From NCBI GenBank assembly GCA_000165345.1, contig CM000436.1, positions 512,001 through 576,000 on the forward strand: a stretch of 64,000 bases of DNA. The letters are read 5' to 3'. The notes below the pieces were generated by a model that worked only from the letters and a program-made list of their open reading frames with translations, searched no databases and was not told the origin of the DNA. Shown here in pieces: positions 1 through 55,503 of this stretch (its first letter is position 1; every line of letters begins with the position of its first letter). The position numbers and the translations under genes were made by a program.

Positions 1-767
1 TGAAATTATATGTGCAAGAAATTAAGTATTTTTTTTTTCACCGTAATTGGGATAGTTTTGTATATTCTTCCTTCTTTTTTTCTGTGAGTAGTGTAGTGCT
101 AGTAGTTTATAATACTAGAAAAGAAGTATAAAGTTTACATTTTTAAAAGTATTAAAAATATGGAGGAGAGAGGAAATAGTAAAGCACTTGTTAAAATTGT
201 GAAAGTTGACAAACTTAGCTTAAAATTGAGAATTTCGTTCCACATTAATTGAATATATACATATATTTTATTATTTAAATTAGAAACATTTTTCTTGATT
301 GCTCAATATTCTATTTTCATCTTTTAACATATTGGTTCTAAGTCAATATAAATATTTGTGTTGATTAACTATACAATATGGGAAAATATGTTAATTTTCT
401 ATTCAAAATTATTATGCAATATTGGTTTTGTTTTGAAAGCAATAATAATTAATGATAAATCAATAAAAGTTTCTTCAACTTATTATCTATTTTGAATTAG
501 TATCAATATTCAATTCATTTTATTATTTCACAATCAAAGAATAAAAATAAACATTTATTAATATTAATATAAATAGGAGAAAAAAAAAGAGAAAAGTGGA
601 AAGGCAAAGAGACATTGAATGCATGTAAATTAATTTTTCGTGGGGGAAAACAAAGAAAATAAATGGCGGGCAAAGTGGTCATAGAAAAGTAAAAATTAAA
701 ACAAATAAAATAATAATAAGAAAGACTGGAAACTTTAAGAGTTATGGCATAAGATAGAAAAGTTAAT

Positions 768-3509
768 ATGATAATAGAAAAAACAAAGAGAAAATCAGAA
801 GTTAGGGATTTTGGAACTCCTGGAAAATATACAAATGAGAAAAAATATGAAAGTAATGAATTAAGAACTTCATTAATTCTAAACTCCAAAACAAGGAGCA
901 TTGAGAAACCCGCACCCAAACCAATTTGCATGAATAATGCTTCTGAAAATGGACATACCGGTGTTGGGAGAGTAATCAAGTATTTAAATGAGCGGGATGC
1001 ATGCATGCAAAATGACGTGTCAAGAACTATGCAAACATGCGAATTACCGGTCAAGCATGCAAATGAAGTATGTGGACTAATCAAATTAATAAGAATAATT
1101 TTTAGTATATTTACTTATTCAGTATTTATTTTATTTATTTTATTGACTATTTTATCTTTAAATACATTATTTGAAAATAAGTATTCAAAATTGGTTGAGA
1201 TTTCTGAATTAATTACTTCAGTAACAATACCTTCGGTGGAGGATATTTACTATTTTAGTAAAGAGTCAAAAGAATCTGTGAGGGAAGCATTTAGATATTT
1301 GAGTGGAAATAAGGATGCTGATTCATTATTTGTGAAACAAAATAATAAGAAAAGAGAAAGAAAAAAAAGTTCAAAGTTATTATCAGAATTACCCAAAAAT
1401 CAAAATAAGGTCAATTCTTCAAAGTTTGGGTTTTATAATCATTCTTTTTTTGATTTAAATTATGATGGATTATCAATTGAGCATTATGATTCTTCTAGTG
1501 CTAGCGCAGATGCAAACTATGAAATTTCTTGGAGAAGAGAGTTCATTAAAGATCAAAATAAGAATTTAAATGATAATTTAAAATTTATAAATGAAATTCA
1601 AAATAAAAGTTTGACAAAAAGTTCTTCATTCGGTTATCGTAAAAATGAACAAGAACAAAAACAAGAACTGGAAAGTGTTAATAATCATTCTAATTTAACT
1701 AAATTGGTTGAGATTATTCTTGGGCAGAGCCAATTAAAGAAATCTTTCAAGGGTAAAAGTGTAAGTATATTGGAATTATTATGCTATCAAAATTTCAGCT
1801 TTCAAGAGGGAATATTATCAATGTATTATAAGGAAAATGACCATGGAATACCTTTTAATGAATATTTTTTAGAATCTGATCAAAATATTCATAAAGAATT
1901 AATTAAAAAATTACTTAATAGAACAATTCTGGATTTATTGGGAATTGAAAGAAACTATGAATTATATATTATTCCAACTATTAATTACGACTATGATAAT
2001 CAATTACAAGTAAATACTAATGATAATAAAAAAAGTATTATTCAAAATCATTTTAGAGTAAGTAGAAGAGTTATTGTATCTTCTGGATATGGTAATGAAG
2101 AAATTCGTGATTTTTGTGAATATCAAAATAAATGGATATGTACAAAATATGAAATGTTAGTATTAAAGTTATTACAAGAATATTATAAAGGAAATGGAGA
2201 AACTTTTATTTCATACTTTTTATTCCAATATAAAAATAATATTGTTGATAAGAACTTATTAGATAATATTCCATTCTTTACAAAAGATCAAATTATTGTA
2301 ATTAATGATGTATTTCCTGGATTATTTACATCATTTCAAAATTTAACAAATAGTATATATAAAAAGATTGATGATTTTGAAAAAAATAAAAAAAGAAATA
2401 ATAATCAATCTAAATATTACTTTGAGAAAGTTACACAAGAAGACATTAATTGGATTATATCTCTAGTATTATCACATTCTTTACAAGATAAAGATGGTCA
2501 TATTGCTTTTGTTCCATATTTTAACATTATACCACATAATAGTGTTAAAGTTGGTGGTATTTCTAATAAAGCTCAAACTTTAATACATCATCCAAATGAA
2601 TTATCTTTTGATTGGAGTTTCTCCAAATCATTTGATTATAAATATAATAAACATTCTGAGAATATTAAAAAAGATGATTTCATAATGATTTATTCATTTT
2701 ATGGTCATTTAAATAATATTAAGTCAGTTGTTCAATATGGTAAACTTTTATATAAGAATGAATATTCTACTGTATGGTTTATTCGAAAAGACGAAAAAGA
2801 TACTTATAAATTTAAGATATTATTTGGTACTAATACTATTTTGAATAATATGAATAATAATTATTCAGCTTATAAAGATAATTTACCAAATTGGTTAATA
2901 AATTTAACAGAAAGTAATCATCATAATTCAAAAATAAAAATAAATATGAATACTCAATTTGTTCATTATATTTCAAATAAAAAAAAGATTCCAATTCAAA
3001 AGAATAAAAAAGAATTAGAGATGGAATATATTGATTGTAATGAATATACATTCTATAATGGAATGGGATTAGGTTTTGGAACTATTCAATTTACTAGATC
3101 ATCTTATGTAGGTGGAATTAATGGAACAGTATATGTATGTTTGAGAGAAATTATGTTTAGGAATTATCAACAGAATAGCAAAAAAAATGGAATTCTCTCT
3201 AATTCTAGTAATAATAATGGAGTTAATATTACAAATGAGAAAAAAGAGGAAGTTTTAGCAAATATTATAAAAAGTAATTGTATTAAAAGATCTACACAAT
3301 TAAGAGGTGTAAAGAATCTATTAATGCATCAACTTGGTATGAAACTTGGAAAAGAAGAGGATTTAATCAATCTTTCAAGTAAAATTAAGCAAGAAATTAG
3401 AATTAATATAAAGTTATTATATGCTACAATGGAAGAATTAGAAAGTATGAAAAAGTGTGTGTCATACTTTGGTAATCTTATTTCAATGATTTCTAAGGAG
3501 AAAATTTAA
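768..3509 (+). CDS. Hypothetical lineage-specific membrane protein with an N-terminal signal anchor (IRIIFSIFTYSVFILFILLTILSL) and a K/N-rich body. The start is ambiguous: ATG 768 is the longest ORF, and alternatives are ATG 1005 or 1029 just before the hydrophobic segment.
   Basis: A 913-aa uninterrupted ORF beginning at ATG 768. An E2F-like TGGCGGGCAAA lies upstream at 664-674. An AP2/CRE composite motif (GATGCATGCATGCAAAATGACGTG, 996-1019) sits inside the 5-prime part of the ORF. This argues that the true start may be 1029 (MQTCELPVKHANEVCGLIKLIRIIF...). I recognise no conserved domain. Confidence 0.5.
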   Translation: MIIEKTKRKSEVRDFGTPGKYTNEKKYESNELRTSLILNSKTRSIEKPAPKPICMNNASENGHTGVGRVIKYLNERDACMQNDVSRTMQTCELPVKHANEVCGLIKLIRIIFSIFTYSVFILFILLTILSLNTLFENKYSKLVEISELITSVTIPSVEDIYYFSKESKESVREAFRYLSGNKDADSLFVKQNNKKRERKKSSKLLSELPKNQNKVNSSKFGFYNHSFFDLNYDGLSIEHYDSSSASADANYEISWRREFIKDQNKNLNDNLKFINEIQNKSLTKSSSFGYRKNEQEQKQELESVNNHSNLTKLVEIILGQSQLKKSFKGKSVSILELLCYQNFSFQEGILSMYYKENDHGIPFNEYFLESDQNIHKELIKKLLNRTILDLLGIERNYELYIIPTINYDYDNQLQVNTNDNKKSIIQNHFRVSRRVIVSSGYGNEEIRDFCEYQNKWICTKYEMLVLKLLQEYYKGNGETFISYFLFQYKNNIVDKNLLDNIPFFTKDQIIVINDVFPGLFTSFQNLTNSIYKKIDDFEKNKKRNNNQSKYYFEKVTQEDINWIISLVLSHSLQDKDGHIAFVPYFNIIPHNSVKVGGISNKAQTLIHHPNELSFDWSFSKSFDYKYNKHSENIKKDDFIMIYSFYGHLNNIKSVVQYGKLLYKNEYSTVWFIRKDEKDTYKFKILFGTNTILNNMNNNYSAYKDNLPNWLINLTESNHHNSKIKINMNTQFVHYISNKKKIPIQKNKKELEMEYIDCNEYTFYNGMGLGFGTIQFTRSSYVGGINGTVYVCLREIMFRNYQQNSKKNGILSNSSNNNGVNITNEKKEEVLANIIKSNCIKRSTQLRGVKNLLMHQLGMKLGKEEDLINLSSKIKQEIRINIKLLYATMEELESMKKCVSYFGNLISMISKEKI

Positions 3510-3897
3510 TCTAATTAAATGTAATTAATTCAAAATTGAGCTTTAAAATCTAAAAATACAAGTATACTTGAAAAAATATGAAGTTTGGGCGCCAACCCCA
3601 TTAATATTATTTAATTAATATAAAAATAATACTTTATTATTAAAATAATTAAATATTAATATTATATTATATTATAATAATTATTAATATATATGTTTAT
3701 ATTAATTAAATAATAATAAAAAAAAATTAATTAATTAAAAAAAAGATTAAAGTTTGATAATACAAATATTTTTTAAGAGTTGGATTTTTGCTGGTTAATG
3801 TATTTGAGATCATAAAGTTAAATTAAATCCAAAAAGTAATTTTGGTTATTTGGAATGGAAGAATCTTTTAGTTAAGTAATAAAAGTAATAAGGCAAT

Positions 3898-7980: not shown

Positions 7981-10900
7981 TCAATTAATAGCTTTGGACA
8001 AAACTCTTCTAGAATATTCTTTAATAAAGTTAACTTTTTTTTGATTTAAATGACCAGGATAAATTTTCTCAATAACATTAATTATATCAGAAATCACCAA
8101 TTCAAATTGAGAAAATTCTTCATCATTTATTCCTTTATTATTGTCATTTTTGTTAATCATATGTTGATCTTCATCTTCTCTTAATTTAATTATTAATTTT
8201 ATTAAAAATACTAAAAATTGTTCAGCTTTAAGCTTAATAGCAGGAAATTTTGAACTTAAAGATTGTATTGAAGGAAGTGATATAAGTGAAAAAAGAATAT
8301 CTTGTGATGAAATTTGATCATTACTTTTAATTCTGGAATCAATATCGGATTCTTTAATGAAATTTCCAAAAGAATAACATGATAAATTAGAATCAATTTG
8401 TTGTATAAATAGTCTTCTAGAATCTTTGGATTCCACAATCTTCTCACAAATCTTTTGAATCTCAAGAATCATATGAGTATCTGAAAAAGATGGGAATAAT
8501 ACAAGTATATCCTTTTCAAAAATTAAAGGAATTACTTGAAGAACTATTGAAGCAGAAAATATATCATTATTATCAACTGATATTCTTGTTAAATTATTTA
8601 AGAAATTTAATGATAACTTTCTTAATTGAGTATAATTGGATGAATTCTGGAAATTATTATTTTCAATACAAACTAAATACTTGTATAATAAAATAACAAT
8701 CTTTTTATAAATCCACCAACTTTGATGTTTTAAAATTTCATCTGGAAGTCTTCTACCTCCTATCATAAATTCCCTGTTCTTCATACTCAAATAATTATCA
8801 ATATTTTCAAATAAACTTATTTCTTCTTCCTTTTTCTTTTCCTCTTCTTCTTCCCTTTCCTCTTCATCTCCTAAAGTAGATATAATATCTTTATCCAAAT
8901 TACTCAATGAAGAATACATCTTAATCCAACCATTAGATTCACAACAACTATTGAAAATATTGAGTATATTCTTATCATGATTAAATTGACAACCATTTTG
9001 ATTATTAAATATTAATAATGGAATTAATATATCCTTAATTTCATCATCTTTACAATAATTCATTAATATTGAAGAAAGAATCTGTCCAGAAATGTCCTTA
9101 ATTACAATATCTTTTGATTCTTCTATACAAGATAAAGACATTCCTATTAATTTATTTCTAAGTGATTCTGATATTACTGGTTTTGTTTGATTTTCTACTA
9201 ATTGATCTCGAGAATTTGTTAGTAATGAATAATTAATTGATGATAATATAGCATTCATTGATTCTCCTGATTGATTTTGTTTACTTGCTAATGAACATAA
9301 ATCATTTAATAATACTTCAGCTCTATTTCCAAGTAATCTTGATAAAAATCCAATTCCATTACTACATTGTTTTCTAACATTATCATTTGGATCTAACAAA
9401 AACTTTACCAAAATTGTTTGAATCTGTGGTAATAATGGACGTAATTGTAATCCACAAAACTCTAAAAATATTACCAAATTACTCAATAAAGCTCCTCTTA
9501 CCAAAGATGATGTTGTTCTATCTGAAATAGATCGTATTAATGGACCAACTAATTTAACTGTTATTGGTTTTAAACATTCATTATTTGTTAATTGAATTGC
9601 TTCACGTAAACCTATTGCACATTCTTCTTTTGAATCTACTGATCCTTGTGATATTCCTTGTATATATATAGCTGAGATTGAATCAATAAGTTTATTACTA
9701 GATATTAAAAGCTCATCATTTTTAGATCTTTCTAACATTTCTTCTTGGTTCATATTTGATTGTACTACTTTACAATTAAGAATCTTCCAATTATAACCAA
9801 TCAATTTATTCTCATCAAAATGTTTCTTATTATCAATTGGATCATGAACCAATATACCAATAGATTCCTTCATTACATTACACACTTGAATGATAGATTT
9901 TCTTGGAACTGAAATTGAAAACAAATAAAAAGATTTAGATGCTGATATTCTGACTTGTTCTGATATATCACACAAAGCTAAAGGTATTAAATACTTTATT
10001 AATATTGAAATTGATGTTTCATATATTGTACTTGAAGCATATAATGATAGATTCAAAAATTCGATTGCTTTAATCCTCATTAATGTTTCTCTTTCAACAA
10101 CTAATTCATTTAAATCATTAATATTTAAATTTTCAATTTGATATTTTCCAGAAATACTTAAATTAGTACTTGGAGTATTTTCACGTATAATATCCAATAA
10201 TATTGTAGCAAATGTCTCCATACTTTGAGCTTCTAATGATTGTACAATACTCATCATTGCTTCTTTTGAAGATTTTTGTATATAATCATCATATTTACCA
10301 TCAATATTTACAGTAGTTTCTAATAATTTTGGAACAATATCAAATAATGAAGATCTTAACCTGTTTTGAGATGGTATATTTGACATTGATTTAATTATCC
10401 TAATCTTATTAATTGTCATAGGATCAGAAATAATTCTTGGAAGTATATTAGAAACTATCCCAGGATGAGATAATTGAATAATAAGTTCTATAGCTGAAAT
10501 CTTTGGATCTTCATCTTCTTCATTATTATCTTTTGATTCAAGTATTTCATCCATTAACCAATTAATAATTGAAAATAGAATTTCAGTATTTTCAGATGCA
10601 AATATGTCTAAACATTCAACTGAATATGTTCTTACCATAATATCTTCATCACATAATCCAATTTTAACAACTGGTAAAAATGATGAAGTTAAACCTTTCA
10701 ATTCGCTCTTTCTTACATTCTTTAAAATCTCCAAAACACCAATACAAGATCCAATCCTTACTGATTTTTTTGGTAACGCATTTCTTCCTGTATTACAAAC
10801 TCCTCCTTTTCCAAAAGAGATGGAATTCGAGCTAGAATCTAAATCTATAGTACCATCCTCACTTAATGATCCTCCCAAATTCTGATAGAATATTGGCAAT

Positions 10901-27374: not shown

Positions 27375-28612
27375 CTATTCATGGGACTCCAACTCCCATA
27401 TAGAATATTTACCGTCAAAACCATAACAAACCAAAGTTGATGGGTTTGGAACCAAAACCTTCATTATCGGTCTCTTATGCACTGAATTCTGAGTATAATG
27501 TTTTATTGGGTCAAAATTCAATTGCCATACTGGGTCTAAATAATTTGGCAATATGGCGCCATTTAGCGTGGTTGCATGTGTCCACATGCAACCATTTGTT
27601 TGCATGAATAACACCGGTATGCAGTCATGTCCGACGGCGGCCAACAGATTTTCATGCACAAATTTTAAATTAATTAGGGGCAATCCATTCCATTTAAGGG
27701 AAGAGTTTAAGAATTCTAATTTTTTACTAATTTGTGTAAAGTAAAGAAATGAATCCTTATCGGTGAAAGCTATTTGGTTTCCCTTGGGACTGAAATCGCA
27801 AGCCATTATGGCGTTTTGACTATTAATTGATGAAAGGGCTTGAAGAGAAAGAGTTTCTGACGAGTTTTCATCGAAATTTTCATCTTTGAAGTTAGAATCT
27901 TCAATTGAGACTCCAAGAATAATGCCCTTATTTTCAAGCCCACCGCATGCAAGGAACTTGCTGCTATTACTCCAAGCTAAGCATGTAAGAGGGAGCTCAG
28001 AAAGTCCAATTTTAAGTTGGTCAAATACATACAAATCTCTCTGTTTAGCTTCAGAGAAAGAAGTTTTCTCGTTTTCCAAGCCTGAATTTTTTTTAGAAGT
28101 AAAGAAGAATACTTCTCCAGAAGTTGTGGATACTGCAAAACTACAGAACTCTTGAAATGGGGAGATTCTACAAAATGTCGGGTAACAATCTGATTGGATA
28201 CAGTTTAATATAGAAGAAACAATCACCAGCTTTTCAGAAAAACTATCTTTTTCTGCCTCTACTTTGAGAAGCCATACGATAACGAGACGATCTTCTCCAA
28301 CTGAAACTAGCTGGCTATAAGAAGAATCCAACGAGTACTTTGTAGGAAGTAAGGACCAGTCTATTGAAACTATTCTGTTCCTATGCTTTGATAGCTTTGC
28401 CAGAGAGTTGCTTGGATGTAATCCATTAAGCTGATAAATTTTAATATTTCTCTTTTCACATACCAATGAAATATCTAAAAAGAACAAAAAGTCAAGTCAA
28501 ATCAAATCGTCAAGAGCCACTCATTCAGAGTCTAAAACTTACATTTCAAATTCGGATGAAAGCCTATCCCAGTAATGCTGGTTTCCAATTGCTTATCAAT
28601 TAAAAGCTTCAT
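27375..28612 (-). CDS. ARPC1: ARPC1-like WD40 protein (Arp2/3 complex p41 subunit homologue), two exons: join(28612..28543, 28474..27375), about 389 aa.
   Basis: LPLINLKFVHENLLAAVGHDCIPVLF compares with human ARPC1 [41 protein letters not shown] compares with CTTGMDGGMSIWDVKSLE. The ORF-track start at 28487 is TTG. The real N-terminus MKLLIDKQLETSITGIGFHPNLK is in a 70-nt upstream exon (ATG 28612). The 68-nt intron has a GTAAGT donor and a TTTTTAG acceptor. It restores ISLVCEKRNIKIYQLNG, which compares with ARPC1 [29 protein letters not shown]. Confidence 0.75.
28475..28542 (-). other. 68-nt spliceosomal intron (phase 1) of the ARPC1-like gene.
   Basis: The minus-strand donor is AAAT|GTAAGTTTTAG and the acceptor is TTGTTCTTTTTAG|ATATTTCA. 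Splicing joins a conserved N-terminal exon in frame. Confidence 0.7.
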
Positions 28613-28799
28613 TTCTCTCAACTTATTCCTTCATTAACTCAGTCTGAAACTCAGCAAAAACCACCTTTTGATTCAGACTATATAAATTGAAAGCATCCAG
28701 TTCAGTCTATACTTACTCTGCTATTTCCCTATTCCATCCGTTAGCCAACTCTTTTCCCACTCTAACTTGTGGGATTATTTATATTGTGGTACTCAACTT

Positions 28800-28831
28800 A
28801 GGGCGCCAAGTGTGGAGCCTGATTTGGCGGT
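28800..28831. promoter_or_regulatory. E2F-like pair GGGCGCCAAG ... GATTTGGCGG in the ARPC1 / dynamin-like bidirectional promoter.
   Basis: GGCGCC and GGCGG cores lie between the divergent starts at 28612 (-) and 28950 (+). Confidence 0.5.
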
Positions 28832-28949
28832 AATACAAATCAATATTGCATGAATTTATGCACAAGAAAAGTCTCAATATAAAGAATTTGATGATTTCAA
28901 AGTTTATATATTTTTAAAAACTTTTTTAGATCAGAAAACTTTGTTTTAA

Positions 28950-31850
28950 ATGATTGAAAACAATGAAAGAGAGTTTCAAGAGTTTCTGGATTTTGATAAC
29001 CCAGATATTGAGAAAATCATGGCTATGCTTAAAAGTATGAGAGAGGTTGAGAATGTTCCCACAAAGCACCTTTACTTATACCTATCAGAGCTATTAAAGT
29101 TAAATGGTTTGGGAGAAGAAATTCCGAGAATTGTTATATTAGGGCAACAAAGCATGGGAAAAACTACAGTAATTGATTATTTGATAGGTCATCCATTAGG
29201 ATACTCAACAAACGATATTGGAACATGTTGTCCAATTGTGTTTCATATATCTCCTTCTGAAGAAAAAGATAGAGAGAGTTATTTGTCTTCTAAATTAGTA
29301 TCTGACTGTTTGTTAGGGTCAGGTATTCTTAATGAGGAAGAGATCACAGAATGTTTAATTGGAGGTGAAAAAGTGACCTTCGAGACGCTTCCTGAGAAGA
29401 TCTTGGAGAGGATGAAGGAAATCAAAATGCAAATAAGCTCTCAAGAGTTGAGAATAGATATCAGATCCAAAGGTGCTATAGAAATGATTATTGTAGATTT
29501 ACCAGGTTTAAAAGAAGATACAAAAGAAGGGTCAAAGATAACACAAAAAATAGTTTATGAGTATGTGAAGAACCACCCAAATGACATTTATATTCTTGTC
29601 AAGAGATCAATTGATGATCCTGCTAATTGGTCTTGGAGGCAGAAATCATTTCTTCTTGAAGAATTGGGATTAGGAAAAGAACAAGCAATAGTTGTTGGAA
29701 CCCGAGCTTTGGAATATCTACAGGAAGAAGTTAAAGAAATATCCAATGGAAAGCAACTACTGGAGAGAATTAAAAAGAGAGAACTCAATTCTGGAGATGC
29801 ATCTGGAGCTCCACTACCTTTGTTCATGTTGGAATTATTTAGTTTAAGTAGGGAGGAAAGAGCTATTAAAAAAATGAGTTCTAGAAAGAATGCCATGGAA
29901 AGGAGAATTTCTGCTGGTGAGAAAGCCATAAAAGAGATTATAACCCAACTTTGTGATCAAGATCATGAAACAGAAGTTAAAGAGAGGCTCCTATCTTACT
30001 TCTCAAGAGATTTGTTTGAAATGGAATTAAGATCTAAATTTGGTCGAATACTCTTAAAACAACTTAATTCTCTAGAAAGGTTGTTTAAAAATAAATCCTG
30101 TTCTTCTATTTATACTTGTGAGGAATTACCAAACCACCAACTATGGAGAGAAGATATTATTTTAATTATAAGAAAATTTGCTGAAATTGTCTATGAAATA
30201 GTAACTGGTAACTTTAAAATACTAGATTTCAATGGAAGTCAGTTTTTGGATAACTTTGGTGGAAACTTGTGGATGAACTTAAATGATGCCAAAGAAACCT
30301 TGAATGACGAAAACCTCATATATCGAAATCAAAATAATTCACTTAATAAGCAAAAACAAAAGTATTTAATGGGATCTTTTAATCTGAACTCCTCCTCCGA
30401 AATTATTTATCTTAGGCAGAAAAGAAGTCCATACTTAATCGGAAAGTGTATCTCTTTAAATTTCGTCTCCGATTCTTCTAAAGAAAGTAACTCTGATCTA
30501 ATCAAAGTCGAATTCCAATACAAAAAGAAGGATGGACTATCTACTGGAGATCATATAAAGTATCTTAGTAAAAGTCAATTAGTACCAGTTAAGAAGGTTC
30601 AAGTATCTAAAGTTGAGCAGAATAACTGCTACTGGCTTGTTGGATTCAAAGAAGAAAGATGGAAGAAACTCATCCCGGTTCAAGTTTTGTCTAAAACAGG
30701 AAATAAAATCTTCTTTAAACAAATAGACGATATTAAAACAATAGCAAAGAATATGAATGAAAATGAAGATAGTAATAACAAAGAGAATACTAGATTAGGA
30801 GTGAATTCTGGATTACCCAGAGATACAAACAGGGATGTTTACTATTTAGAACTTTGTGGAGAATATGCTCTGTATATTGATTCAAACTGGGACCAAATTG
30901 ATATTCTCAATCAATCTGTTGATCAAAGCTCAGATATTCTGGAAGAAAAAACTAGTTATCCAACTCAAGTTATAAATAAAAGAATTGAATTTACTCAAGA
31001 TATTAATAAGTCAAATATTAATAATGACCCAATGTATGATCTACTACTACTAAATGAAATGTCATTCAGACTCATTTTTAAATGGTTTAAAGAGACCTTT
31101 AAATCCCTAAAACTAAAAAGTACTTACAATGAACAAATACTATGTCAAATGCTTAGAAGTGTTTCAAATGTAATGAGTACCTCAAATTGGGAGCCAGCTG
31201 TTGTTGATGTACTACAGATGAATGTAAAAGAGTTGGTTATTCCTTTAGTTAATTTAACCTCTTTTGCTTGTTCTGAGGCTTTAAAGAGAATTATGAAAGC
31301 AGCTTTGAATGTACTAAAGAAAGAATCAGAGCAAGTAACAACTTCAAATCTTTTGTTCAAATCAACAGAATTTTCTTCAGTATTTAAAACAACAATTGAT
31401 CACTTTTGTCTAGAGAAAGCAAGAATATGTTCAGAATCCATGAAAGAGTTGATTATAGAACAAGCCAGTGCAATTGTAATGGATTTGAATTATGATGATC
31501 TGTATACAGACTGGGAGAAAGTACACCAAGCTTCCAAAAGTCATTTTGAGAAACTCAAAGAGAGCCTTTCTTCTTCTTTATGTACCAAGCTATATCTTAG
31601 TTTTGTTAATGACTTCAAAGAAATAGGAATTAGGCATAAACAAAAGCTTAATATAGAGAGTTATCTCAAAGAATCCATATTAGATGGTTTATTATCAGAG
31701 GAAGAAGTCATTCAAAGATATAAACTAGACAAAGCTATCAAAGACAATGAAAAATTTAAAGAAAAACACAAAAACCTAAAAGAGAACTACTTGTTTATTC
31801 TAAAGATCATAAAGATGTTGAAATATAATATTCAATTTGAAAGAATGTGA
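28950..31850 (+). CDS. Dynamin-related GTPase, highly divergent (possibly Drp-C-like). It has a dynamin GTPase domain, and the rest is lineage-specific.
   Basis: [24 protein letters not shown] compares with the dynamin P-loop [34 protein letters not shown] compares with [25 protein letters not shown] compares with LILAVSPANSDLANSD. I see no obvious PH or GED region. Confidence 0.72.
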   Translation: [966 protein letters not shown]

Positions 31851-35594: not shown

Positions 35595-35656
35595 ATACCG
35601 GCGTGCAAATGATTTGGCAAAAAAAAAAGTACACGTCATTGCATGCGTTGCAAATA
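35595..35656. promoter_or_regulatory. Composite module ATACCGG-CGTGCAAATG ... ACACGTCAT-TGCATGCG-TTGCAAATATG.
   Basis: The same element types (TATACCGG-like, TGCAAAT, CACGTCAT/ATGACGTG, GCATGC) occur as at 41008-41063, here in the opposite orientation. The location is the spacer between the NAT10 start and the NAA60-like gene 3-prime end. Confidence 0.45.
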
Positions 35657-41007: not shown

Positions 41008-41063
41008 CTATACCGGTGTCTGCAAATTTTGCAAATGCATGCATGCAATTACATGACGTGGCG
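41008..41063. promoter_or_regulatory. Best exemplar of the composite cis-module: CTATACCGG-TGTC-TGCAAATTTTGCAAATGCATGCATGCAA-TTAC-ATGACGTGGCG.
   Basis: Ordered TATACCGG box, then TGCAAAT(T)TTGCA palindrome, then a double AP2-type GCATGCATGCAA, then a CRE-like ATGACGTG. The location is the BTB / Rrp5 divergent intergenic region. A (TA)7 microsatellite follows at 41087-41102. Confidence 0.5.
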
Positions 41064-47831: not shown

Positions 47832-49973
47832 TCAAAATTTGAAATCTTGGATCAAATTGAAATCCTGTAAAGGATTATGATATCCAGACCTCATAATTTG
47901 ATCACTAGAAATTTGATTATTAGTTAGAATGTTGAGGAGAGTAATTCCAGTAATTGCTCCAAATATTACAGTAGAGACTACTCCATATAGTACGGCTTTA
48001 ACTTTTTTGAGTGATTTTAACTTAGGAATACTGAGGATTAGGAATCTATTATTTAGGTTATTATAGTCGCCATGAGGATCTTGAGTATCAAATACTTTTT
48101 CAATAGCTGGATTAATATCTTCTTGTCTAAAATGCTTGAGATATGATCTGTGAAAAGTGGCTCTACACTTTAGAATTGCAATACAAACATAATAGATTGA
48201 AGAGTAGTCTAAAATTACATCTCTAGGTGAGTTGGTCTTTAATGGTCTGTATTTTCTTTTATTAATTTTAATAAGTTTTGCAAGCCAAAAGTATCTAATA
48301 AGTATAAAGCATGCCTCTAAATTAGGCCTATTTCCAATTTTCTGCATCTTCATTGGGATATGTAGAATGTCCTTAACAGTGATCTTTATTGGATTGATTC
48401 TAAATCTGGCAAAAGTTCGAGTATATTCAGTAGTAGTCCAGAGGAGACACCAGACAAATTGATTTCTGCTAGGGAAAAGTGCTTTGCTATTGGATGGAAG
48501 GTAACTAATATATCCAGAAAGTGAGTCCCAATCAGGAGTCTGCCAATAGAAGTAGCTGCTCGGATCTGGTCTGTATTCATTCACAGATTGGTAATAGTAG
48601 GCTTGATATAAAGTCTGTAACTTAATAGTTCTCGTACATAGATTGAGCGATGTAAAGGATGTTGTGAGTGAATGCTCAAAGTACCTATATAATTTACCAA
48701 ATTGGATGTATTTTGGAGTCTTAGTAATTCCAAGCTGAATTCGGTAGCCATTATTTAGAGATAAAGCAACCAAATTATTAGAACAGGACTTAGGCATTGT
48801 TGTGTATTCAAAGAAATCAGGAGGAATATTAGGAATAGACATTCTTTCTTTAGTAGGCAAAAGAGGTAAATCTCCATTGCTGAGGCCAAATACCGTTAAA
48901 TCTCCTCTAATTGGAATAATTTGCTTAAATAAGTACCACATTGCATCGCTTGGAGACCTTAAATAAAGCTTTTTCCAAGTGTGATAGATTTTTGATTCTA
49001 CTTGAATCTTTTTAAAATCATACTGTTCATATTCATCTCTCAAATAGCCCTGAATTTCCCTCATTGCTTTCATATAAAATTCACATGTGAGTCTTAATAA
49101 GAACTTGTTTCTGTCGTTTTGTTTACCTAACATTTTACTTTTCTTGTTTACTTTTGGAATATTTGAAATTGGTTCTACAAGTTTTACAGCATCCTCAATT
49201 CCCAATTTCTTTAGAGACTCTTCATTATATTCAAACCTTTTCCATATTATGGTATTTTCTGGATTACTTTCTTCTTCCAAATAAGTATCAGAAGTTGAAT
49301 CTTGGGTCTCAGAATCTTTAAAAGAGTCAAAATATCTTTCGAATAATTCAAAACCATAACTTGCTGTTATTTTTGAATAAATATCCCAACACTTTGAGAT
49401 TGAATTTATAGGCCTGGATAATTCTTTAATGAATTTATCATCTTTCTTTTTTCTTTCTAAATTAAAAAATACAGAATCCTCATTAGGATCTTCTCTATTT
49501 AATATACTTTTCTTATCAATTTCATCAATGACTTGTTCTTTTCTAATTTCTTTAGAATTTATAGTTTTTCTGACAAAATACATAATAATTCTAAAATGAG
49601 TTTCTTTTACTACAATATTTGATCCATATTTAATGTTAAATGCCCAATTTCTTATCAAATCTTCTCTAATTGTTTCCAGAGATTGATATTTGTTCTCAAC
49701 GTAGTTTTTTTCCTCCTTTTTTGTAAATATCTCTTCCTCCTGATTGGAGAGTTTCTCACCTTTTGGATCTACATCTAAGATATTTGAATCTTCGATAGAA
49801 AGGTCAAATGTACGAGTGTTGTTCCTAATGTATGAGAATCTCTCTTTCACATTCCAAAATTTAGGTAATATAAAACTTTTTTTTTTTTTGTAAATAGCAC
49901 TCTCAATTACTCCAAATCCACATATTATTGTAAAAACCAATACTAATAACCTTGTTTTGTATTTGAATTTCAT
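47832..49973 (-). CDS. Lineage-specific secretory-pathway membrane protein (signal peptide plus C-terminal TM anchor). It is a paralogue of the adjacent divergent gene 50370-52751.
   Basis: The N-terminal signal peptide is MKFKYKTRLLVLVFTIICGFGVIESA. The C-terminal TM is LYGVVSTVIFGAITGITLLNIL. It shares blocks with the neighbour: KIYHTWKKLYLRSPSDAMWYLFKQI vs QLYIRWMELYKVDPPRSQWFILRKL, and LIKINKRKYRPLKTNSPRDV vs GIKINNRNFRIINPDDISEL. No known domain. Confidence 0.6.
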   Translation of the reverse strand: MKFKYKTRLLVLVFTIICGFGVIESAIYKKKKSFILPKFWNVKERFSYIRNNTRTFDLSIEDSNILDVDPKGEKLSNQEEEIFTKKEEKNYVENKYQSLETIREDLIRNWAFNIKYGSNIVVKETHFRIIMYFVRKTINSKEIRKEQVIDEIDKKSILNREDPNEDSVFFNLERKKKDDKFIKELSRPINSISKCWDIYSKITASYGFELFERYFDSFKDSETQDSTSDTYLEEESNPENTIIWKRFEYNEESLKKLGIEDAVKLVEPISNIPKVNKKSKMLGKQNDRNKFLLRLTCEFYMKAMREIQGYLRDEYEQYDFKKIQVESKIYHTWKKLYLRSPSDAMWYLFKQIIPIRGDLTVFGLSNGDLPLLPTKERMSIPNIPPDFFEYTTMPKSCSNNLVALSLNNGYRIQLGITKTPKYIQFGKLYRYFEHSLTTSFTSLNLCTRTIKLQTLYQAYYYQSVNEYRPDPSSYFYWQTPDWDSLSGYISYLPSNSKALFPSRNQFVWCLLWTTTEYTRTFARFRINPIKITVKDILHIPMKMQKIGNRPNLEACFILIRYFWLAKLIKINKRKYRPLKTNSPRDVILDYSSIYYVCIAILKCRATFHRSYLKHFRQEDINPAIEKVFDTQDPHGDYNNLNNRFLILSIPKLKSLKKVKAVLYGVVSTVIFGAITGITLLNILTNNQISSDQIMRSGYHNPLQDFNLIQDFKF

Positions 49974-50081
49974 TGATTTAATTCGAATTTAATTTCATCT
50001 TCTATAATTAACTAACTTTAAATTAATTGAACTAATTTTTTTTATTTAAGAAATTTCTTCAATTCATGACAATTGAAATGC

Positions 50082-50197
50082 ACCGGTATGCAATTTAAAC
50101 AAAAAAATTTATTACTAATAAATTTATCCACATGAAAATAACCGGTATAGAAATTTTGTACAAAAATAATTACATCCACATGAAAATGCCGGTATAG
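50082..50197. promoter_or_regulatory. Direct-repeat promoter elements in the bidirectional spacer between the paralogue pair: ACCGGTATGCA (50082-50092) and two copies of CCACATGAAAAT(R)(R)CCGGTATAG (50128-50150 and 50176-50197).
   Basis: Read directly. The CCGGTATAG/CTATACCGG box also occurs at 41008, 55441, 35595 and 63514 next to GCATGC motifs. Confidence 0.45.
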
Positions 50198-50369
50198 TGC
50201 AAAGAAAATGCGCATGACAGGAAAAAAAAAAAATAATTCAAGTCAAAAAAACAAAAAAAAAGAAGAAAAAATTTTATTTGGTAGTAAGATAAGAAAATGA
50301 TTTTGATTCTTTAAATTAAATTATGAATTTTGGTTATTTAATAAGAATCCAATTAAGTTAAATAAAAAA

Positions 50370-52751
50370 ATGAAACTATTAAAACAACCATTAACTGCAT
50401 TAATTGTGTTAACACTAGTTTTTAGTTGGTTGTTTAATTTGAGAGAATGTAAAGAAGTGAATACATCCAATTTAAATTTGAAATCAGAGACAAATAAAAT
50501 AAGTTATTTAACAGAGAAAATTGATACAAATATTTATAATAGAAGAATAACTCACAATAGTGAGGATTCTGAAATAAAGCAAGAAAAAAAAGAGGAAATT
50601 GAAATTAAGACTTTGGAAAGTGATGATTTAATAAAAATTAATATTAGTCAAAATATTATTCATGTTTTAAGAGTAAATTTTGAACTAGGAAATGATAATC
50701 TTAAAACACAAATTCACTGGGTACTTTTGTTATTGATATTGAAGGCAGACAAATACAAAGAAAGGCCCAAAGGAATGAAACAACTTGATGATTATAATGA
50801 TTGTTTATATTTTATCAAAAAACATCATAAGTTACTGTTAAAGAGTAATCTTTCAAGGGAGGAGAAAATAAAATCAACACAGAGAGCTTGTATAGCATTT
50901 TTTGATAATTTATTCAAGATTAAAAGTAAATGGAGCGATATAAGTTCAAAAGAGTATCTTCAATTATCTAGAAGAATTACCTCTTCTCAGCTTTATATTA
51001 GATGGATGGAGCTATACAAAGTTGATCCTCCACGTTCTCAATGGTTTATTTTAAGAAAATTGGCAATCAATCAGTTTGATGAGATTTTAAGGTTATTTAA
51101 AATATTGACCAAAAATACTAATGAGTATAAATCATTTGAAAATATTCTCATTGAGTTTATGACTCAATTTACTTCTTATTGTAAGGATTACGAATTAAAT
51201 GATAAACTTTATAAACGGGAGTTGGGGAAATACTTGAAAGATGATTACTCTTATAGCTTTAAAGATAAAGCTAACATGATTAAAATTGGGTTTAAAAGCA
51301 AGACTAAAAAAAAAAATAAAAGAAATTTCCGGATTTACCTTCCAGAAGAAATGCCAGATCTTTATGTATATCATCATCAGGTAAATACGTGCGTATTAAA
51401 TTTAGGAATAATGTCTTTATATCCAGAATTAAAGGTTTTTTTCTATGATGTATTTAAGAGAAAACCAACATATTATTTGTTCCATAGAAAGCCCATCACA
51501 ATTAGCAGAAAGACTTTATTAAGATCAAATCAACTCTGTAATTTAATGCTTGAACTTACCAATAAATTGGAAAGATCTTATTATTTGTTAAATATCGAAC
51601 AATACAAGTTTACATATCTTCAAGACACAAATACAGTAGGGAAAACAAATTCTACAAAAAAATTCATTAATAATTTTAGTCTAAGTGAATACATACAAAA
51701 AAAAGGGTTGGTTAAGCCATTACCATTTCATCCCTATTACTATTCAAATCCATTGGATATTGAAATTCAAAATATATTTACAAATTGGCTATTTATTAGC
51801 CATTTTGAAAAGCAAAGTTTGATTAACTCATTAAAGCATTATACAAAAGATATGGAAAAGAAACATAAAGATTTGTTTTTAAATGCAAAACTTGATTTAT
51901 TAAAAAAGTTAATTTCTGAGGATGAACAAATGTTAAAGAATTATGTTTCTAAAGAAGAGAAACAATCGAAAGATGGATTATTCTTGCTTTATTTTCAAAA
52001 AAGAGCAAATAAATTAAAAAACAACGTTGAGAAGGTAATCGATCATTTAAATTCAGTGGAAAATAATATATTCAACAATACGAAACTTTATGAATTGATT
52101 GACCAAGAAAATCCATCTCCTAACGTATTTTCTTTAATTCCAATAATATATTTAAATTCCAAACTTTGGAATGTTCAAAAACTTTTATATAAATACCCTG
52201 TTTCACTTAAAGTGAACTTAAAAATGCTTGTAAATTTATCAGAAACTCTTAAAATTGGCGAGAAAAGCCTTGGGGATATTAAAGTTGGAGATATCTCAAC
52301 CTGTATTAAAGTTACCACCATTTTTTGGAAAAATCAGGGTATTAAAATAAATAATCGAAATTTTAGGATAATTAACCCAGATGATATATCCGAATTATAT
52401 GAAAAAAGCAACGAATTGTCTGAAATTTACATGGACTATGCAACATTATACTTACTTTGTGTAAAATCAGTTTCACAAAGCTTAATTTATTATAGAAGAA
52501 TTCTTAAATATTACTTTGGAGATAACTTTGATAATTACTGGAAATTCAACATGTTATTAGATATGAATAATGAAGAAAGCTCCAATAGTTTCCAATATAT
52601 CAATAAGAAGAATATACATCTTCATTCTCTACCAAATGATTTTATTATGCCAAATTTAACAAAAGGAATATACATCTCAATTTTGAGTGCTTACCTTCTA
52701 TTGACAGTGGGAGCAGTTTGTATTCAGTCATTAATTACCATAATATTTTAA
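50370..52751 (+). CDS. Lineage-specific secretory-pathway membrane protein (signal peptide plus C-terminal TM anchor). It is a paralogue of 47832-49973.
   Basis: The signal peptide is MKLLKQPLTALIVLTLVFSWLFNLREC. The C-terminal TM is ISILSAYLLLTVGAVCIQSLITIIF. It has an internal duplicated RNFRI(Y/I)xP(E/D)(E/D)(M/I)x(D/E)LY motif at about aa 318-333 and about aa 668-683. The homologous blocks with the upstream neighbour are listed there. Confidence 0.6.
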   Translation: MKLLKQPLTALIVLTLVFSWLFNLRECKEVNTSNLNLKSETNKISYLTEKIDTNIYNRRITHNSEDSEIKQEKKEEIEIKTLESDDLIKINISQNIIHVLRVNFELGNDNLKTQIHWVLLLLILKADKYKERPKGMKQLDDYNDCLYFIKKHHKLLLKSNLSREEKIKSTQRACIAFFDNLFKIKSKWSDISSKEYLQLSRRITSSQLYIRWMELYKVDPPRSQWFILRKLAINQFDEILRLFKILTKNTNEYKSFENILIEFMTQFTSYCKDYELNDKLYKRELGKYLKDDYSYSFKDKANMIKIGFKSKTKKKNKRNFRIYLPEEMPDLYVYHHQVNTCVLNLGIMSLYPELKVFFYDVFKRKPTYYLFHRKPITISRKTLLRSNQLCNLMLELTNKLERSYYLLNIEQYKFTYLQDTNTVGKTNSTKKFINNFSLSEYIQKKGLVKPLPFHPYYYSNPLDIEIQNIFTNWLFISHFEKQSLINSLKHYTKDMEKKHKDLFLNAKLDLLKKLISEDEQMLKNYVSKEEKQSKDGLFLLYFQKRANKLKNNVEKVIDHLNSVENNIFNNTKLYELIDQENPSPNVFSLIPIIYLNSKLWNVQKLLYKYPVSLKVNLKMLVNLSETLKIGEKSLGDIKVGDISTCIKVTTIFWKNQGIKINNRNFRIINPDDISELYEKSNELSEIYMDYATLYLLCVKSVSQSLIYYRRILKYYFGDNFDNYWKFNMLLDMNNEESSNSFQYINKKNIHLHSLPNDFIMPNLTKGIYISILSAYLLLTVGAVCIQSLITIIF

Positions 52752-52848: not shown

Positions 52849-54675
52849 CTAGTGATGCATTGGTGGATGAATCGGCAAATTAAACCCAGAATTAATGTTA
52901 AAATTACCATTAGACATGTATTGATTAGGATGACACTGAGAAGCTTTATTAGTAACAATTTTCGTGATTGATTCAGAAAATGGGTTTTCTCCAAGTATAT
53001 TTACTGGCACAGAAGCTTTAAATGAAAAACATGTTGGGGAAGAAGGGGGTGAAATCTGAGATTGTTGGTCAGTGTTGGTTTCTAACTCTGGATTATGGCT
53101 TTGATTAGCTAAAATTGGAGCCTGATCTGGAAAAGGGCATTGACCACCAGCCAATGGAGTACCGTAATTTGGATTTGCCACTTTTGGCCTTCTTTTACAT
53201 TTCTTTTTGAATACATCTTGAGAAAAACATGCGGGAGAAGAAAAGTCAATTTCAACTTTTGGAGGTTGGATAAGTGGACGAATATTTGGAGATTGGAAAA
53301 GCGTGCTAGTTGAGATGTTTGTATGACCACCTTGAGAAATACCTGCTTGATCTTTTGGAGGTCCGTTTCCATCTTCAGCTCCAGATGACTTTTTTTTAGT
53401 GAGACATTCTTCTGCCATTGCTGTGAGTAAGTATTTAGCGAGCATTTGAGAGTCCATTCCGAGAGGGTTTGGAACGGTTGGTGCTTGAACTCCAGAGGGA
53501 CCTGGTATTCCTGGAGCTACTCCAGCAACAATTTCTGGAGAAATTGGAGCTTGAATATGTGGAGGGGGGCCGCCTGCCATTGTGGGTAGTGGCATACCCA
53601 TTGGGTGAATATTTGTTGGATCGAATTGCATCTGCATATTTGGAGGTGGTGGGAGGTGGGGGGGGTTCATATTCATGTTAGGGATTTGTATTGGGCCTGG
53701 AGCTACCATTGGCATTGGCATTGGCATTGGTATTGGCATTGACATCGGCATTGGCATTGGCACTGGCATTGGCATTGGAGTTGGCAAATGCGCTGGAATA
53801 GGCATTTGCATGGGCATGGGAGCTGGCATTTGCATATTTTGCGGAGGTAATGGAGGCATTGGAAGTTGATGATGTGGCTGATAAGGAAATGGATTTGGAG
53901 TTTGAATCGTTGCTGGCAATGATTGCATTCTACCATTTAACTGCATTTGGGTGGGATAATGTTGTTCTTGCTGATGAATAGAATGGAAAACTGGAATTTG
54001 AGGAGCCATTTGAACATATTCATTTGGCTGTTTATGTATTGGGATTGGCTGTAATTGAGCCCCGTGTCCATGGGATGGCATTTGAATTGGGTGAGCCATC
54101 ATTGGATTTTGATGAGGCTGTGGATACGGCTGCGATAGAGGGATTTGAGGAGGCTGATGAATCTGGATTGGGACTGAACCTCGGAGATCTAGTGGAACTC
54201 CTTTTTCCTGGATTGAATTCAACTCAGAAGAAGTTCCATAAATATCAGAGCACGATATATTAGATTCTGGACTTTGTTCAATATTTATCAAGTTTTTTGA
54301 TCGTTTTGGGGAAATATTAGTTGAGACAACTCTACTTAAAACAACATTATTTTCAATATGCCCCTCAGAGATGTAATTATTACCATTATTAGGCTTTTCA
54401 TTGATCTCTTGTTTCTCTTTAATAGAATCAAAGTTTCGGCTATCTAATTCATTCTTATTTACAATTCTGGTTTCTTTCATTGGAGAGTTACTAAAATCTT
54501 CTTTATTATTAATACTAGAAATATGAGAACTATTATCTATGGAACTCTGACTTGCTGGAGAAGCAAATTGTTTTTTCTTCAAGAGTAATTCATTCTCAAG
54601 ATTTTTAACAGTTGCATCCAACTCATTAAGATTTTCATCTAAGATTTCCATTTCTTGCTTTTCTTTTGGGAACAT
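52849..54675 (-). CDS. Hypothetical protein with an N-terminal coiled coil, then a P/Q/M-rich region containing (PM)n repeats (PMPMPVPMPMPMSMPIPMPMPMPM).
   Basis: A 608-aa ORF. The ORF-track start at 54687 is TTG, and the first ATG (MFPKEKQEMEILDE) is at 54675 with an in-frame TGA just upstream. The (GGCATT)n tract encodes (PM)n. No conserved domain. Confidence 0.55.
   Translation of the reverse strand: MFPKEKQEMEILDENLNELDATVKNLENELLLKKKQFASPASQSSIDNSSHISSINNKEDFSNSPMKETRIVNKNELDSRNFDSIKEKQEINEKPNNGNNYISEGHIENNVVLSRVVSTNISPKRSKNLINIEQSPESNISCSDIYGTSSELNSIQEKGVPLDLRGSVPIQIHQPPQIPLSQPYPQPHQNPMMAHPIQMPSHGHGAQLQPIPIHKQPNEYVQMAPQIPVFHSIHQQEQHYPTQMQLNGRMQSLPATIQTPNPFPYQPHHQLPMPPLPPQNMQMPAPMPMQMPIPAHLPTPMPMPVPMPMPMSMPIPMPMPMPMVAPGPIQIPNMNMNPPHLPPPPNMQMQFDPTNIHPMGMPLPTMAGGPPPHIQAPISPEIVAGVAPGIPGPSGVQAPTVPNPLGMDSQMLAKYLLTAMAEECLTKKKSSGAEDGNGPPKDQAGISQGGHTNISTSTLFQSPNIRPLIQPPKVEIDFSSPACFSQDVFKKKCKRRPKVANPNYGTPLAGGQCPFPDQAPILANQSHNPELETNTDQQSQISPPSSPTCFSFKASVPVNILGENPFSESITKIVTNKASQCHPNQYMSNGNFNINSGFNLPIHPPMHH
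53705..53782. repeat. Coding hexanucleotide microsatellite (GGCATT)n, about 12 units, encoding (PM)n on the minus strand.
   Basis: ggcattggcattggcattggtattggcattgacatcggcattggcattggcactggcattggcattgg, read directly. Confidence 0.8.
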
Positions 54676-54897
54676 TTTTCTATCCAATTCTCAAAGGAAT
54701 ATATCACATATAATTCCCACAAATTGTTTATTCTGGCTTTTTTGTTTTTGTAAGAACAATTTATTCAATTTAACAACTAACCACTATCTCCACTAAGTTA
54801 AATTTAAACAATTCCTCTTTATTTTTTTACTGCCACAAAAAGTGTCAAGTTTTACAGTTGACTGCATCTAAATTCTTACTCCTAGCTACCAGTAAAC

Positions 54898-55440: not shown

Positions 55441-55503
55441 TATACCGGCATTCGCACATGCATGACTAATTTGCATACGTGTCTGCAAATTTGCATGTGG
55501 ATA
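55441..55503. promoter_or_regulatory. Second composite module TATACCGG-CATTCGCACATGCATGAC-TAATTTGCATACGTGTC-TGCAAATTTGCATGTGG. It is not adjacent to any annotated start.
   Basis: The same ordered elements occur as at 41008-41063. It lies about 90 bp downstream of the ATPase stop and about 765 bp upstream of the PM-rich gene ATG. Confidence 0.4.

Follow-up and report, generated by a model that had tools for sequence, protein, structure and literature searches.

A conserved head-to-head gene pair of Cryptosporidium parvum probably encodes co-regulated sexual-stage membrane proteins

Within a 64,000-nt stretch of Cryptosporidium parvum DNA (hereafter the window; G+C 21–35%), the genes cgd8_2060 (gene A, positions 47832..49973, − strand) and cgd8_2070 (gene B, positions 50370..52751, + strand) stand head to head on either side of a 396-bp spacer (positions 49974..50369). 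Their products, of 713 and 793 amino acids (aa), are distantly related to each other, and published transcript data show both genes to be induced in female-sorted parasites. The most probable interpretation, to which a probability of roughly 0.6 is assigned, is that A and B are type I membrane proteins of the sexual stages, jointly regulated and acting together, most likely as a heteromer, in fertilization or in the formation of the zygote or oocyst. They are not thought to be host-directed virulence effectors.

The original prediction, made from the DNA letters of the window, described two open reading frames (ORFs) in this divergent arrangement, and the ORF listing places both exactly there. 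The translated proteins are 100% identical to the C. parvum Iowa II GenBank entries EAK89404 for A (CPATCC_004027, annotated as a 'hypothetical protein') and EAK89405 for B (CPATCC_004028). In the supplements of Tandel 2019 (PMC6877471), cgd8_2030 is the TATA-box binding protein, cgd8_2040 a potassium-channel-tetramerisation BTB protein, cgd8_2050 RRP5, and cgd8_2090 a P-type ATPase. Because the gene order around the pair matches this naming, A corresponds to cgd8_2060 and B to cgd8_2070. The identity of B is confirmed by its product name, which is the same in the Oberstaller 2013 supplement and in GenBank. The two genes are assigned to separate orthologue groups, OG5_195749 and OG5_195750, in the Tandel 2019 supplements (PMC6877471).

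The kinship of A and B had been proposed from a few shared strings, with a direct pairwise alignment set beforehand as the check on it, and this alignment is significant. BLASTP aligns the two proteins with an expectation (E) value of 2e-6 across the C-terminal 104 aa and returns a block of the form Y-W-LY-P-W as a second match (E=0.049). Comparison with hhalign of the profiles built from orthologue alignments (13 sequences for A, 10 for B) gives a probability of 96% and E=3.3e-9 over 135 columns. A second collinear match (E=0.0028) takes in the W block together with the PPDFFEY/MPDLYVY block, and a third (E=0.054) covers the N-terminal NWAFNIKYGS/RVNFELGN block. In the control, in which one profile was compared with the other reversed, the best match, across 19 hydrophobic columns, reached E=0.04. 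When 15 sequences from both groups were aligned jointly with MAFFT, 25 columns proved invariant throughout, including six cysteines (C195, C297, C397, C446, C555, and C597 of A) together with W333, P341, and W346. Overall identity between A and B is only about 18–22%, and the two are set apart by large insertions. On the evidence of these alignments, A and B are distant but real paralogues with a collinear relationship over their full length.

The conserved blocks can be placed precisely. The Y-W-LY-P-W block spans residues 327–352 of A (48918..48995, − strand; SKIYHTWKKLYLRSPSDAMWYLFKQI) and aligns with residues 206–231 of B (50985..51062, + strand; SQLYIRWMELYKVDPPRSQWFILRKL), with W333, P341, and W346 of A being the residues invariant in both families. 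The C-terminal homology domain comprises residues 550–684 of A (47922..48326, − strand), which contain LIKINKRKYR, and residues 640–790 of B (52287..52739, + strand), which contain GIKINNRNFR. Both blocks quoted in the original prediction are therefore real, since SKIYHTWKKLYLRSPSDAMWYLFKQI aligns with SQLYIRWMELYKVDPPRSQWFILRKL and LIKINKRKYR with GIKINNRNFR in BLASTP and in the joint alignment. Each protein also carries a private insertion. The insertion of B (residues ~465–590, window ~51762–52139) is rich in Lys and Glu and is predicted to form long helices, while that of A (residues ~150–290, window ~49104–49526) is acidic and rich in Ser, Asp, and Glu. Most of the difference in length between A and B stems from these insertions, which also explain why a simple pairwise alignment breaks down beyond the conserved blocks.

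A third relative had been suggested at 768–3509 (+ strand), where a protein with a KIKINxxxQF string is encoded. This candidate was rejected. It is unrelated to the pair by hhalign (E=0.26 and 0.32 against the two profiles, 0.2% probability), and its layout differs, with an internal signal-anchor at residues ~101–137 and no C-terminal transmembrane (TM) segment. The KIKIN string is a chance match. The protein itself (913 aa, EAK89392) has that single hydrophobic segment and no Pfam domain.

The architecture of A and B was examined by Kyte–Doolittle scans of both window proteins and 21 orthologues. Each of the two proteins has one hydrophobic segment within its first 25 residues and one at the C-terminus, with none in between. 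This layout is kept in nearly all orthologues, the exceptions being one truncated B and a weaker N-terminal segment in A of C. serpentis, and it agrees with the original claim of a signal-like N-terminus and a single C-terminal TM segment. In A, the signal-peptide-like segment occupies residues 1–25 (49899..49973, − strand; MKFKYKTRLLVLVFTIICGFGVIES), with a hydropathy maximum of 2.4–3.0 that is kept in orthologues; in B it occupies residues 1–24 (50370..50441, + strand). Annotations of the orthologues in other species read 'signal peptide and a transmembrane domain-containing protein'. From this layout we infer that A and B are type I single-pass membrane proteins of the secretory pathway. 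The six invariant cysteines of the predicted ectodomain are consistent with residence in an oxidizing compartment.

The two proteins differ at their C-terminal ends. The predicted TM helix of A (residues 659–684, 47922..47999, − strand) is followed by a conserved 29-aa tail (residues 685–713, 47835–47921, − strand) with the core R-x-G-(Y/F/H)-(H/N)-N-(P/S/T)-L, which is conserved genus-wide. The tail measures 23–34 residues among orthologues, and N700 and L702 are invariant in 13 of them; its core could be a sorting or interaction motif. In B, the terminal hydrophobic segment (residues 766–793, 52665..52748, + strand) may represent either a tail-less TM helix or a glycosylphosphatidylinositol (GPI) signal. 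All B orthologues show a hydrophobic stretch of 27–28 residues followed by 0–9 residues to the end of the protein, and by eye no convincing omega/omega+2 pair of small residues is present. Because the terminal segment of B aligns with the TM helix of A, both in hhalign and in the joint alignment, a tail-less TM anchor is favored over a GPI signal.

The statement that the proteins contain no known domain holds for A, B, and the 15 aligned members: Pfam searches with the two proteins and with the aligned members give only scattered single-member noise. At the permissive threshold of E<=10, none of the 15 members matches the Pfam families for 6-Cys s48/45, CPW-WPC, HAP2-GCS1, LCCL, TSP1, EGF, or Tht1/KAR5, and A and B match none of these at E<=1. 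Profile searches of the sequences in the PDB found no relatives of A or B. When a low-confidence model of B was compared with the PDB by Foldseek, nothing passed E<=0.001 and the TM-scores stayed below 0.1, a result that is uninformative.

The distribution of the family is restricted. A word-indexed protein search found orthologues only in Cryptosporidium, with the lowest identities being 38% for A (C. serpentis) and 37% for B (C. ryanae and C. bovis). An exhaustive hmmsearch with a joint A+B profile was then compared with 1.84 billion representative proteins (E<=0.001), a library that is built on public genomes and should cover the published Cryptosporidium proteomes. It returned five proteins, two of A type and three of B type, all from Cryptosporidium and all far below 1e-30. 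One of them was new and is 85% identical to the B orthologue of C. serpentis. No other Cryptosporidium protein was found with this profile, and no conserved eukaryotic family, which bears out the earlier description of the proteins as lineage-specific. Judged by these searches, A and B constitute a two-member family confined to Cryptosporidium. The deep-branching gastric lineage represented by C. serpentis possesses the two of them.

The locus is equally stable. The order RRP5, A, B, cgd8_2080, P5-ATPase recurs unchanged in C. ubiquitum, C. serpentis, C. felis, C. ryanae, C. canis, and C. meleagridis. In these six species, A and B are head to head with a spacer of 270–455 bp, and one copy of each gene is present at the syntenic site in all seven species. 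The locus appears to be mid-chromosomal, judging from one chromosome-scale record, that of C. meleagridis, in which it lies at 561–584 kb of 1.37 Mb. Nei–Gojobori estimates of the dN/dS ratio (omega) between C. parvum and C. meleagridis are 0.15 for A and 0.19 for B. The neighboring genes give 0.13 for RRP5, 0.08 for the P5-ATPase, and 0.30 (range 0.27–0.30) for cgd8_2080, the highest value in the neighborhood. The comparison with C. ubiquitum gives a similar picture, at a synonymous divergence (dS) of about 1. By this measure A and B are under purifying selection like the housekeeping neighbor RRP5, and they are ordinary constrained genes, not fast-evolving effectors.

Published expression data place both genes in the sexual phase of the life cycle. 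The supplementary tables of Tandel 2019 (PMC6877471) report RNA sequencing (RNA-seq) of sorted populations, in which cgd8_2060 stands at 2.65 log2 counts per million (CPM) in asexual parasites, 7.43 in females in vitro, and 5.15 in females in vivo, with a log2 fold change (log2FC) of +4.79 between female and asexual populations. The corresponding values for cgd8_2070 are 0.96 (the floor), 4.73, and 4.91, with a log2FC of +3.77 (PMC6877471). The same study counts both among the female genes that have no Plasmodium or Eimeria counterparts. An RNA-seq panel of ten compounds (PMC11078545) labels both genes female specific. In six treatments of that panel both genes pass the false discovery rate (FDR) cutoff, and in every one of these A and B move the same way: beloranib, BAY 61-3606, mycophenolate, oligomycin A, and AGM-1470 lower both, whereas S-1255 raises both. 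Neither gene is listed in the AP2-F knock-out supplements. cgd8_2070 belongs to cluster 102 of Oberstaller 2013, a cluster that the main text of that paper does not mention.

The original prediction also noted three CCGGTAT boxes in a direct-repeat context within the spacer. All three are present on the + strand, and they are conserved between species. Box 1 (CCGGTATGC, 50083..50091) is kept in C. meleagridis, C. ubiquitum, and C. canis; in C. felis, a CCGGTAT aligns with it. Box 2 (CCGGTATAG, 50142..50150) is kept in C. ubiquitum and C. canis and lost in C. meleagridis. Box 3, which has the same sequence (CCGGTATAG, 50189..50197), falls within a stretch in which C. parvum and C. ubiquitum are 100% identical. 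Boxes 2 and 3 are part of a 48-bp tandem duplication. Each is directly preceded by one copy of a 23-nt direct repeat (AATAAWTWHATCCACATGAAAAT; two copies 48 nt apart, 50117..50187, + strand, 87% identity), and the ATCCACATGAAAAT core occurs exactly twice, ahead of these two boxes.

A phylogenetic footprint covers the core of the spacer (50119..50212), which shows 80–100% identity to C. ubiquitum and C. canis, as opposed to roughly 45–60% for the remaining spacer. At this distance of comparison, synonymous sites approach saturation (dS about 1.0), and the retention of the boxes and of the 50119–50212 core between species therefore supports a function for the boxes. The spacer contains three copies of CCGGTAT in C. 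ubiquitum, two copies and one CCGGTAA in C. canis, and two copies in C. meleagridis. The motif is also kept in C. felis, is degenerate in C. ryanae, and is absent in C. serpentis. The C. meleagridis spacer (positions 9713–10000 of locus sequence L006) lacks ~50 bp relative to window positions 50128–50178, which corresponds to one tandem unit with box 2 and the ATCCACATG element, and represents a natural two-box variant of the promoter. The features by which a bidirectional promoter is recognized come together here, namely divergent genes, a 396-bp spacer, co-induction in published data, and a conserved element in the spacer. The spacer is accordingly described as a putative bidirectional promoter with a candidate shared cis-element.

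The motif is not limited to this spacer. The window contains 10 copies of CCGGTAT against 0.79 expected (~12-fold), a count that none of 100 shuffles reached. Seven of these ten copies fall in the part of the window (19%) that large ORFs do not cover. The intergenic copies beyond the spacer are located at 35595(−), 41010(−), 55442(−), and 63511(−), and those inside ORFs at 955(−), 14924(+), and 27614(+). The copy at 955 lies within the 5' region of the 768–3509 gene, on the opposite strand, and many copies in the window have TGCAT or CATGCA within 25 nt upstream. In an unbiased 7-mer scan of 11,980 intergenic bases, using order-1 and order-2 background models, the known AP2_1 motif GCATGCA ranked first (24 copies) and the known E2F motif GGCGCCA second (15 copies). 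The next distinct motif that is not of low complexity was ATACCGG/CCGGTAT, with 7 copies versus 0.25–0.28 expected. The number of independent occurrences is smaller than seven, because three of these copies belong to this spacer and two of the three are products of the duplication.

Positional conservation elsewhere supports CCGGTAT as a real cis-element. The BTB gene cgd8_2040 has an upstream copy in sense orientation at 41010..41016 (− strand). It recurs upstream of this gene and in sense in all five other species whose locus sequence reaches the gene, including C. serpentis and C. ryanae (positions 16431, 18929, 19362, 19036, and 18895 of locus sequences L002 to L006, respectively). In C. 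serpentis it is just 81 nt from the ATG of the BTB gene. The copy upstream of cgd8_2080 (55442..55448, − strand) has an equivalent site in C. ubiquitum (L001 11067) and in C. meleagridis (L006 4741).

The promoter motifs described for C. parvum are AP2_1 (TGCATGCA), AP2_2 (GCACAC), E2F (TGGCGCCA), the G-box, GAGA, and the CAAT-box. CCGGTAT resembles them in being strongly over-represented in intergenic DNA and conserved at orthologous positions. It is absent from the motif table of a 2025 review, from the texts of Oberstaller 2014 and Mullapudi 2007, and, as far as the text, the stored supplements, and the readable entries of the motif table extend, from Oberstaller 2013. A literature search combining CCGGTAT with Cryptosporidium gave only irrelevant primer matches. 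The motif is therefore a candidate cis-element outside the readable part of the published C. parvum motif catalogs, and if it holds genome-wide, it would join the very few regulatory motifs known from this parasite.

Taken as a functional unit, the pair may be pictured as follows. A and B are an ancient inverted duplicate, older than the divergence of the living Cryptosporidium species. They are transcribed divergently from a short, putatively shared promoter, whose conserved core contains the three CCGGTAT boxes, with ATCCACATGAAAAT ahead of two of these. According to the published data, the genes are essentially off in asexual stages and switched on together in the sexual (female-sorted) program. 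The proteins would enter the secretory pathway through their N-terminal signal sequences and would each expose an ectodomain or luminal domain of about 630–740 residues, apparently mostly helical in low-confidence models, in which the six invariant cysteines may form three disulfides. One C-terminal helix would hold each protein in the membrane, leaving A with a conserved cytoplasmic tail and B with almost none. In a heteromer, the tail of A could supply the sorting signal for the tail-less B. The probable site of action is the secretory system or the surface of the macrogamont or zygote.

Several observations weigh against this interpretation and lend support to other ones. The AlphaFold2 models, derived from alignments of 13 and 10 sequences from one genus, have mean predicted local distance difference test (pLDDT) scores of 40.1 and 37.5 and are unusable, and the main texts of the literature searched mention neither cgd8_2060 nor cgd8_2070. 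Bidirectional promoters are common in the compact C. parvum genome, with over half the regulatory peaks from the assay for transposase-accessible chromatin (ATAC-seq) annotated as bidirectional (PMC11761812). For this reason, co-regulation alone is no proof of an interaction between A and B. In addition, cgd8_2040 and cgd8_2000 have CCGGTAT upstream yet show no female induction in the Tandel 2019 data (PMC6877471); the motif alone consequently cannot explain stage specificity, and its role as a female-specific determinant was dropped. The commonness of bidirectional promoters and the motif copies at genes that are not female-induced, together with the low identity and the large insertions of A and B, suit a scenario in which each paralogue has a function of its own. 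An inverted duplication of long standing, retained in a compact genome, would then explain why the two are adjacent and co-expressed, and CCGGTAT would be a general promoter element with no part in stage control. Such independence is considered unlikely, given that the head-to-head arrangement has been retained across the whole genus, that the complementary architecture with and without a tail is also conserved, and that A and B respond in parallel in two independent data sets (PMC6877471, PMC11078545).

The female label itself may also be questioned. HAP2 (cgd8_2220), a male factor, is scored as female-enriched in the tables of both PMC6877471 and PMC11078545 and is at the floor in vivo, which implies some male signal in the sorted in vitro female population. 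Moreover, A stands 2.3 log2 units lower in females in vivo than in vitro (5.15 versus 7.43; PMC6877471), so that a male or mixed contribution is possible; this drop and the HAP2 score belong with the unfavorable observations above. One or both genes could then be male (microgamont) or pan-sexual, with the female label an artefact of contamination during sorting. This is quite improbable, as B is steady (4.73 in vitro versus 4.91 in vivo) and A stays at 5.1–6.7 in the three well-sequenced in vivo samples, reaching the floor only in the fourth, which is of low depth.

A different possibility concerns the time at which the proteins act. The transcripts could be maternal or zygotic mRNAs of the macrogamont, possibly under translational repression, whose products serve sporulation, the oocyst, or the sporozoites. 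Many female transcripts code for oocyst and sporozoite components, which counts in favor of such a delay. The induction in female-sorted parasites (PMC6877471) fits it as well, and a PLoS Pathogens 2024 study that lists both genes deals, by its title, with translational repression in macrogamont differentiation. On the other side, both genes are absent from the part of the sporozoite-shared lists of Tandel 2019 that could be consulted, which is weak evidence. Later action is a rather unlikely account of the data.

The original prediction placed the pair near the virulence and host-interaction families of Cryptosporidium. The families of the MEDLE, SKSR, FGLN, WYLE, and GGC types consist of small soluble proteins that are multi-copy, often subtelomeric, and variable between species, and that are expressed in asexual or invasive stages. 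A and B resemble them in being restricted to Cryptosporidium, in having a signal-like N-terminus, and in matching no Pfam domain, and A contains a WYLF string. Unlike these multigene families, A and B exist as two copies, measure 713–793 aa, are predicted to be membrane-anchored, and lie at an apparently mid-chromosomal locus. They are also syntenic in every species examined, under purifying selection, and induced in sexual stages. With a family of two members and no further Cryptosporidium protein matching the joint profile, the comparison fails on copy number and homology; the checks of synteny and dN/dS, with RRP5-like omega values of 0.15–0.19, reveal a pair conserved genus-wide. Expression points the same way, since sorted asexual parasites show both transcripts close to the detection floor and female-sorted parasites show them up (PMC6877471), whereas the WYLE and SKSR genes are labeled 'asexual specific' in the tables of PMC11078545. 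The idea of a virulence family is thus not supported on copy number, conservation, selection, genomic position, expression stage, or homology, and it is highly improbable that the pair is a secreted or surface family acting through micronemes or dense granules of invasive or intracellular asexual stages.

The preferred interpretation, that of a sexual-stage membrane pair, invites comparison with two known systems. The Plasmodium 6-Cys proteins of the gamete surface are encoded by adjacent paralogues and anchored by a TM segment or GPI; gametes express them, and they form complexes and have a part in fertilization. By analogy, A and B may work like the 6-Cys pairs P48/45–P47 and P230–P230p, in that paralogous adjacent genes encode proteins with a signal sequence, stabilization by cysteines, and a membrane anchor. 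They differ in showing no s48/45 domain in any of 15 members, in standing head to head and not in tandem, and in being mostly helical in low-confidence models, whereas the 6-Cys domains are beta-sandwiches. The second system comprises KAR5, GEX1, and Brambleberry (Pfam Tht1), which have a signal peptide, a luminal domain with cysteines, long helical or coiled-coil stretches, and a C-terminal TM segment. The likeness of A and B to these proteins extends to the signal, luminal cysteines, helical stretches, C-terminal TM segment, and sexual-stage expression. However, KAR5/GEX1 is pan-eukaryotic, while A and B have no Tht1 match at E<=10, and no relatives were found outside Cryptosporidium.

A more specific version of the sexual-stage reading can also be formulated. 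A and B together could be a heterodimeric receptor of the macrogamete for the microgamete, the female-side partner of the HAP2-bearing male gamete, with the CCGGTAT boxes bound by an ApiAP2 or Myb factor that contributes to the sexual-stage program. This version is allowed by the sexual-stage co-induction, the predicted anchoring, the large ectodomain with cysteines that may stabilize it, the genus-wide conservation, and the conserved tail on one subunit only. It is very unlikely to be correct.

A single host suffices for the whole sexual cycle of Cryptosporidium, whose transmission requires fertilization and oocyst formation. To our knowledge, very few female-stage membrane proteins have an assigned role. 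The pair described here is conserved in the genus, co-regulated, and predicted to be membrane-anchored, and neither the host nor any other organism searched has it. These properties make it a tractable candidate for tagging and knock-out, and possibly for the blocking of transmission. In view of their paralogy, cgd8_2060 and cgd8_2070 are best studied together, despite their separate orthologue groups.

The surroundings of the pair offer some further observations. The neighboring gene cgd8_2080 (52849–54687, − strand) encodes a 612-aa protein with a long low-complexity region rich in Pro, Met, and Gln (PMPMPVPMPMPMSMPIPMPMPMP). Its listed ORF begins with TTG, and the true ATG is probably a few codons downstream. 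Its expression is 10.0 in females in vivo versus 7.4 in asexual parasites (Tandel 2019, PMC6877471). In the same data, cgd8_1980 (ARPC1) and cgd8_1990 (dynamin-like), located at window positions 27375–31850, are strongly induced in female-sorted parasites, with a log2FC of +5.7 for the dynamin-like gene. The window therefore mixes several sexual-stage genes among housekeeping genes.

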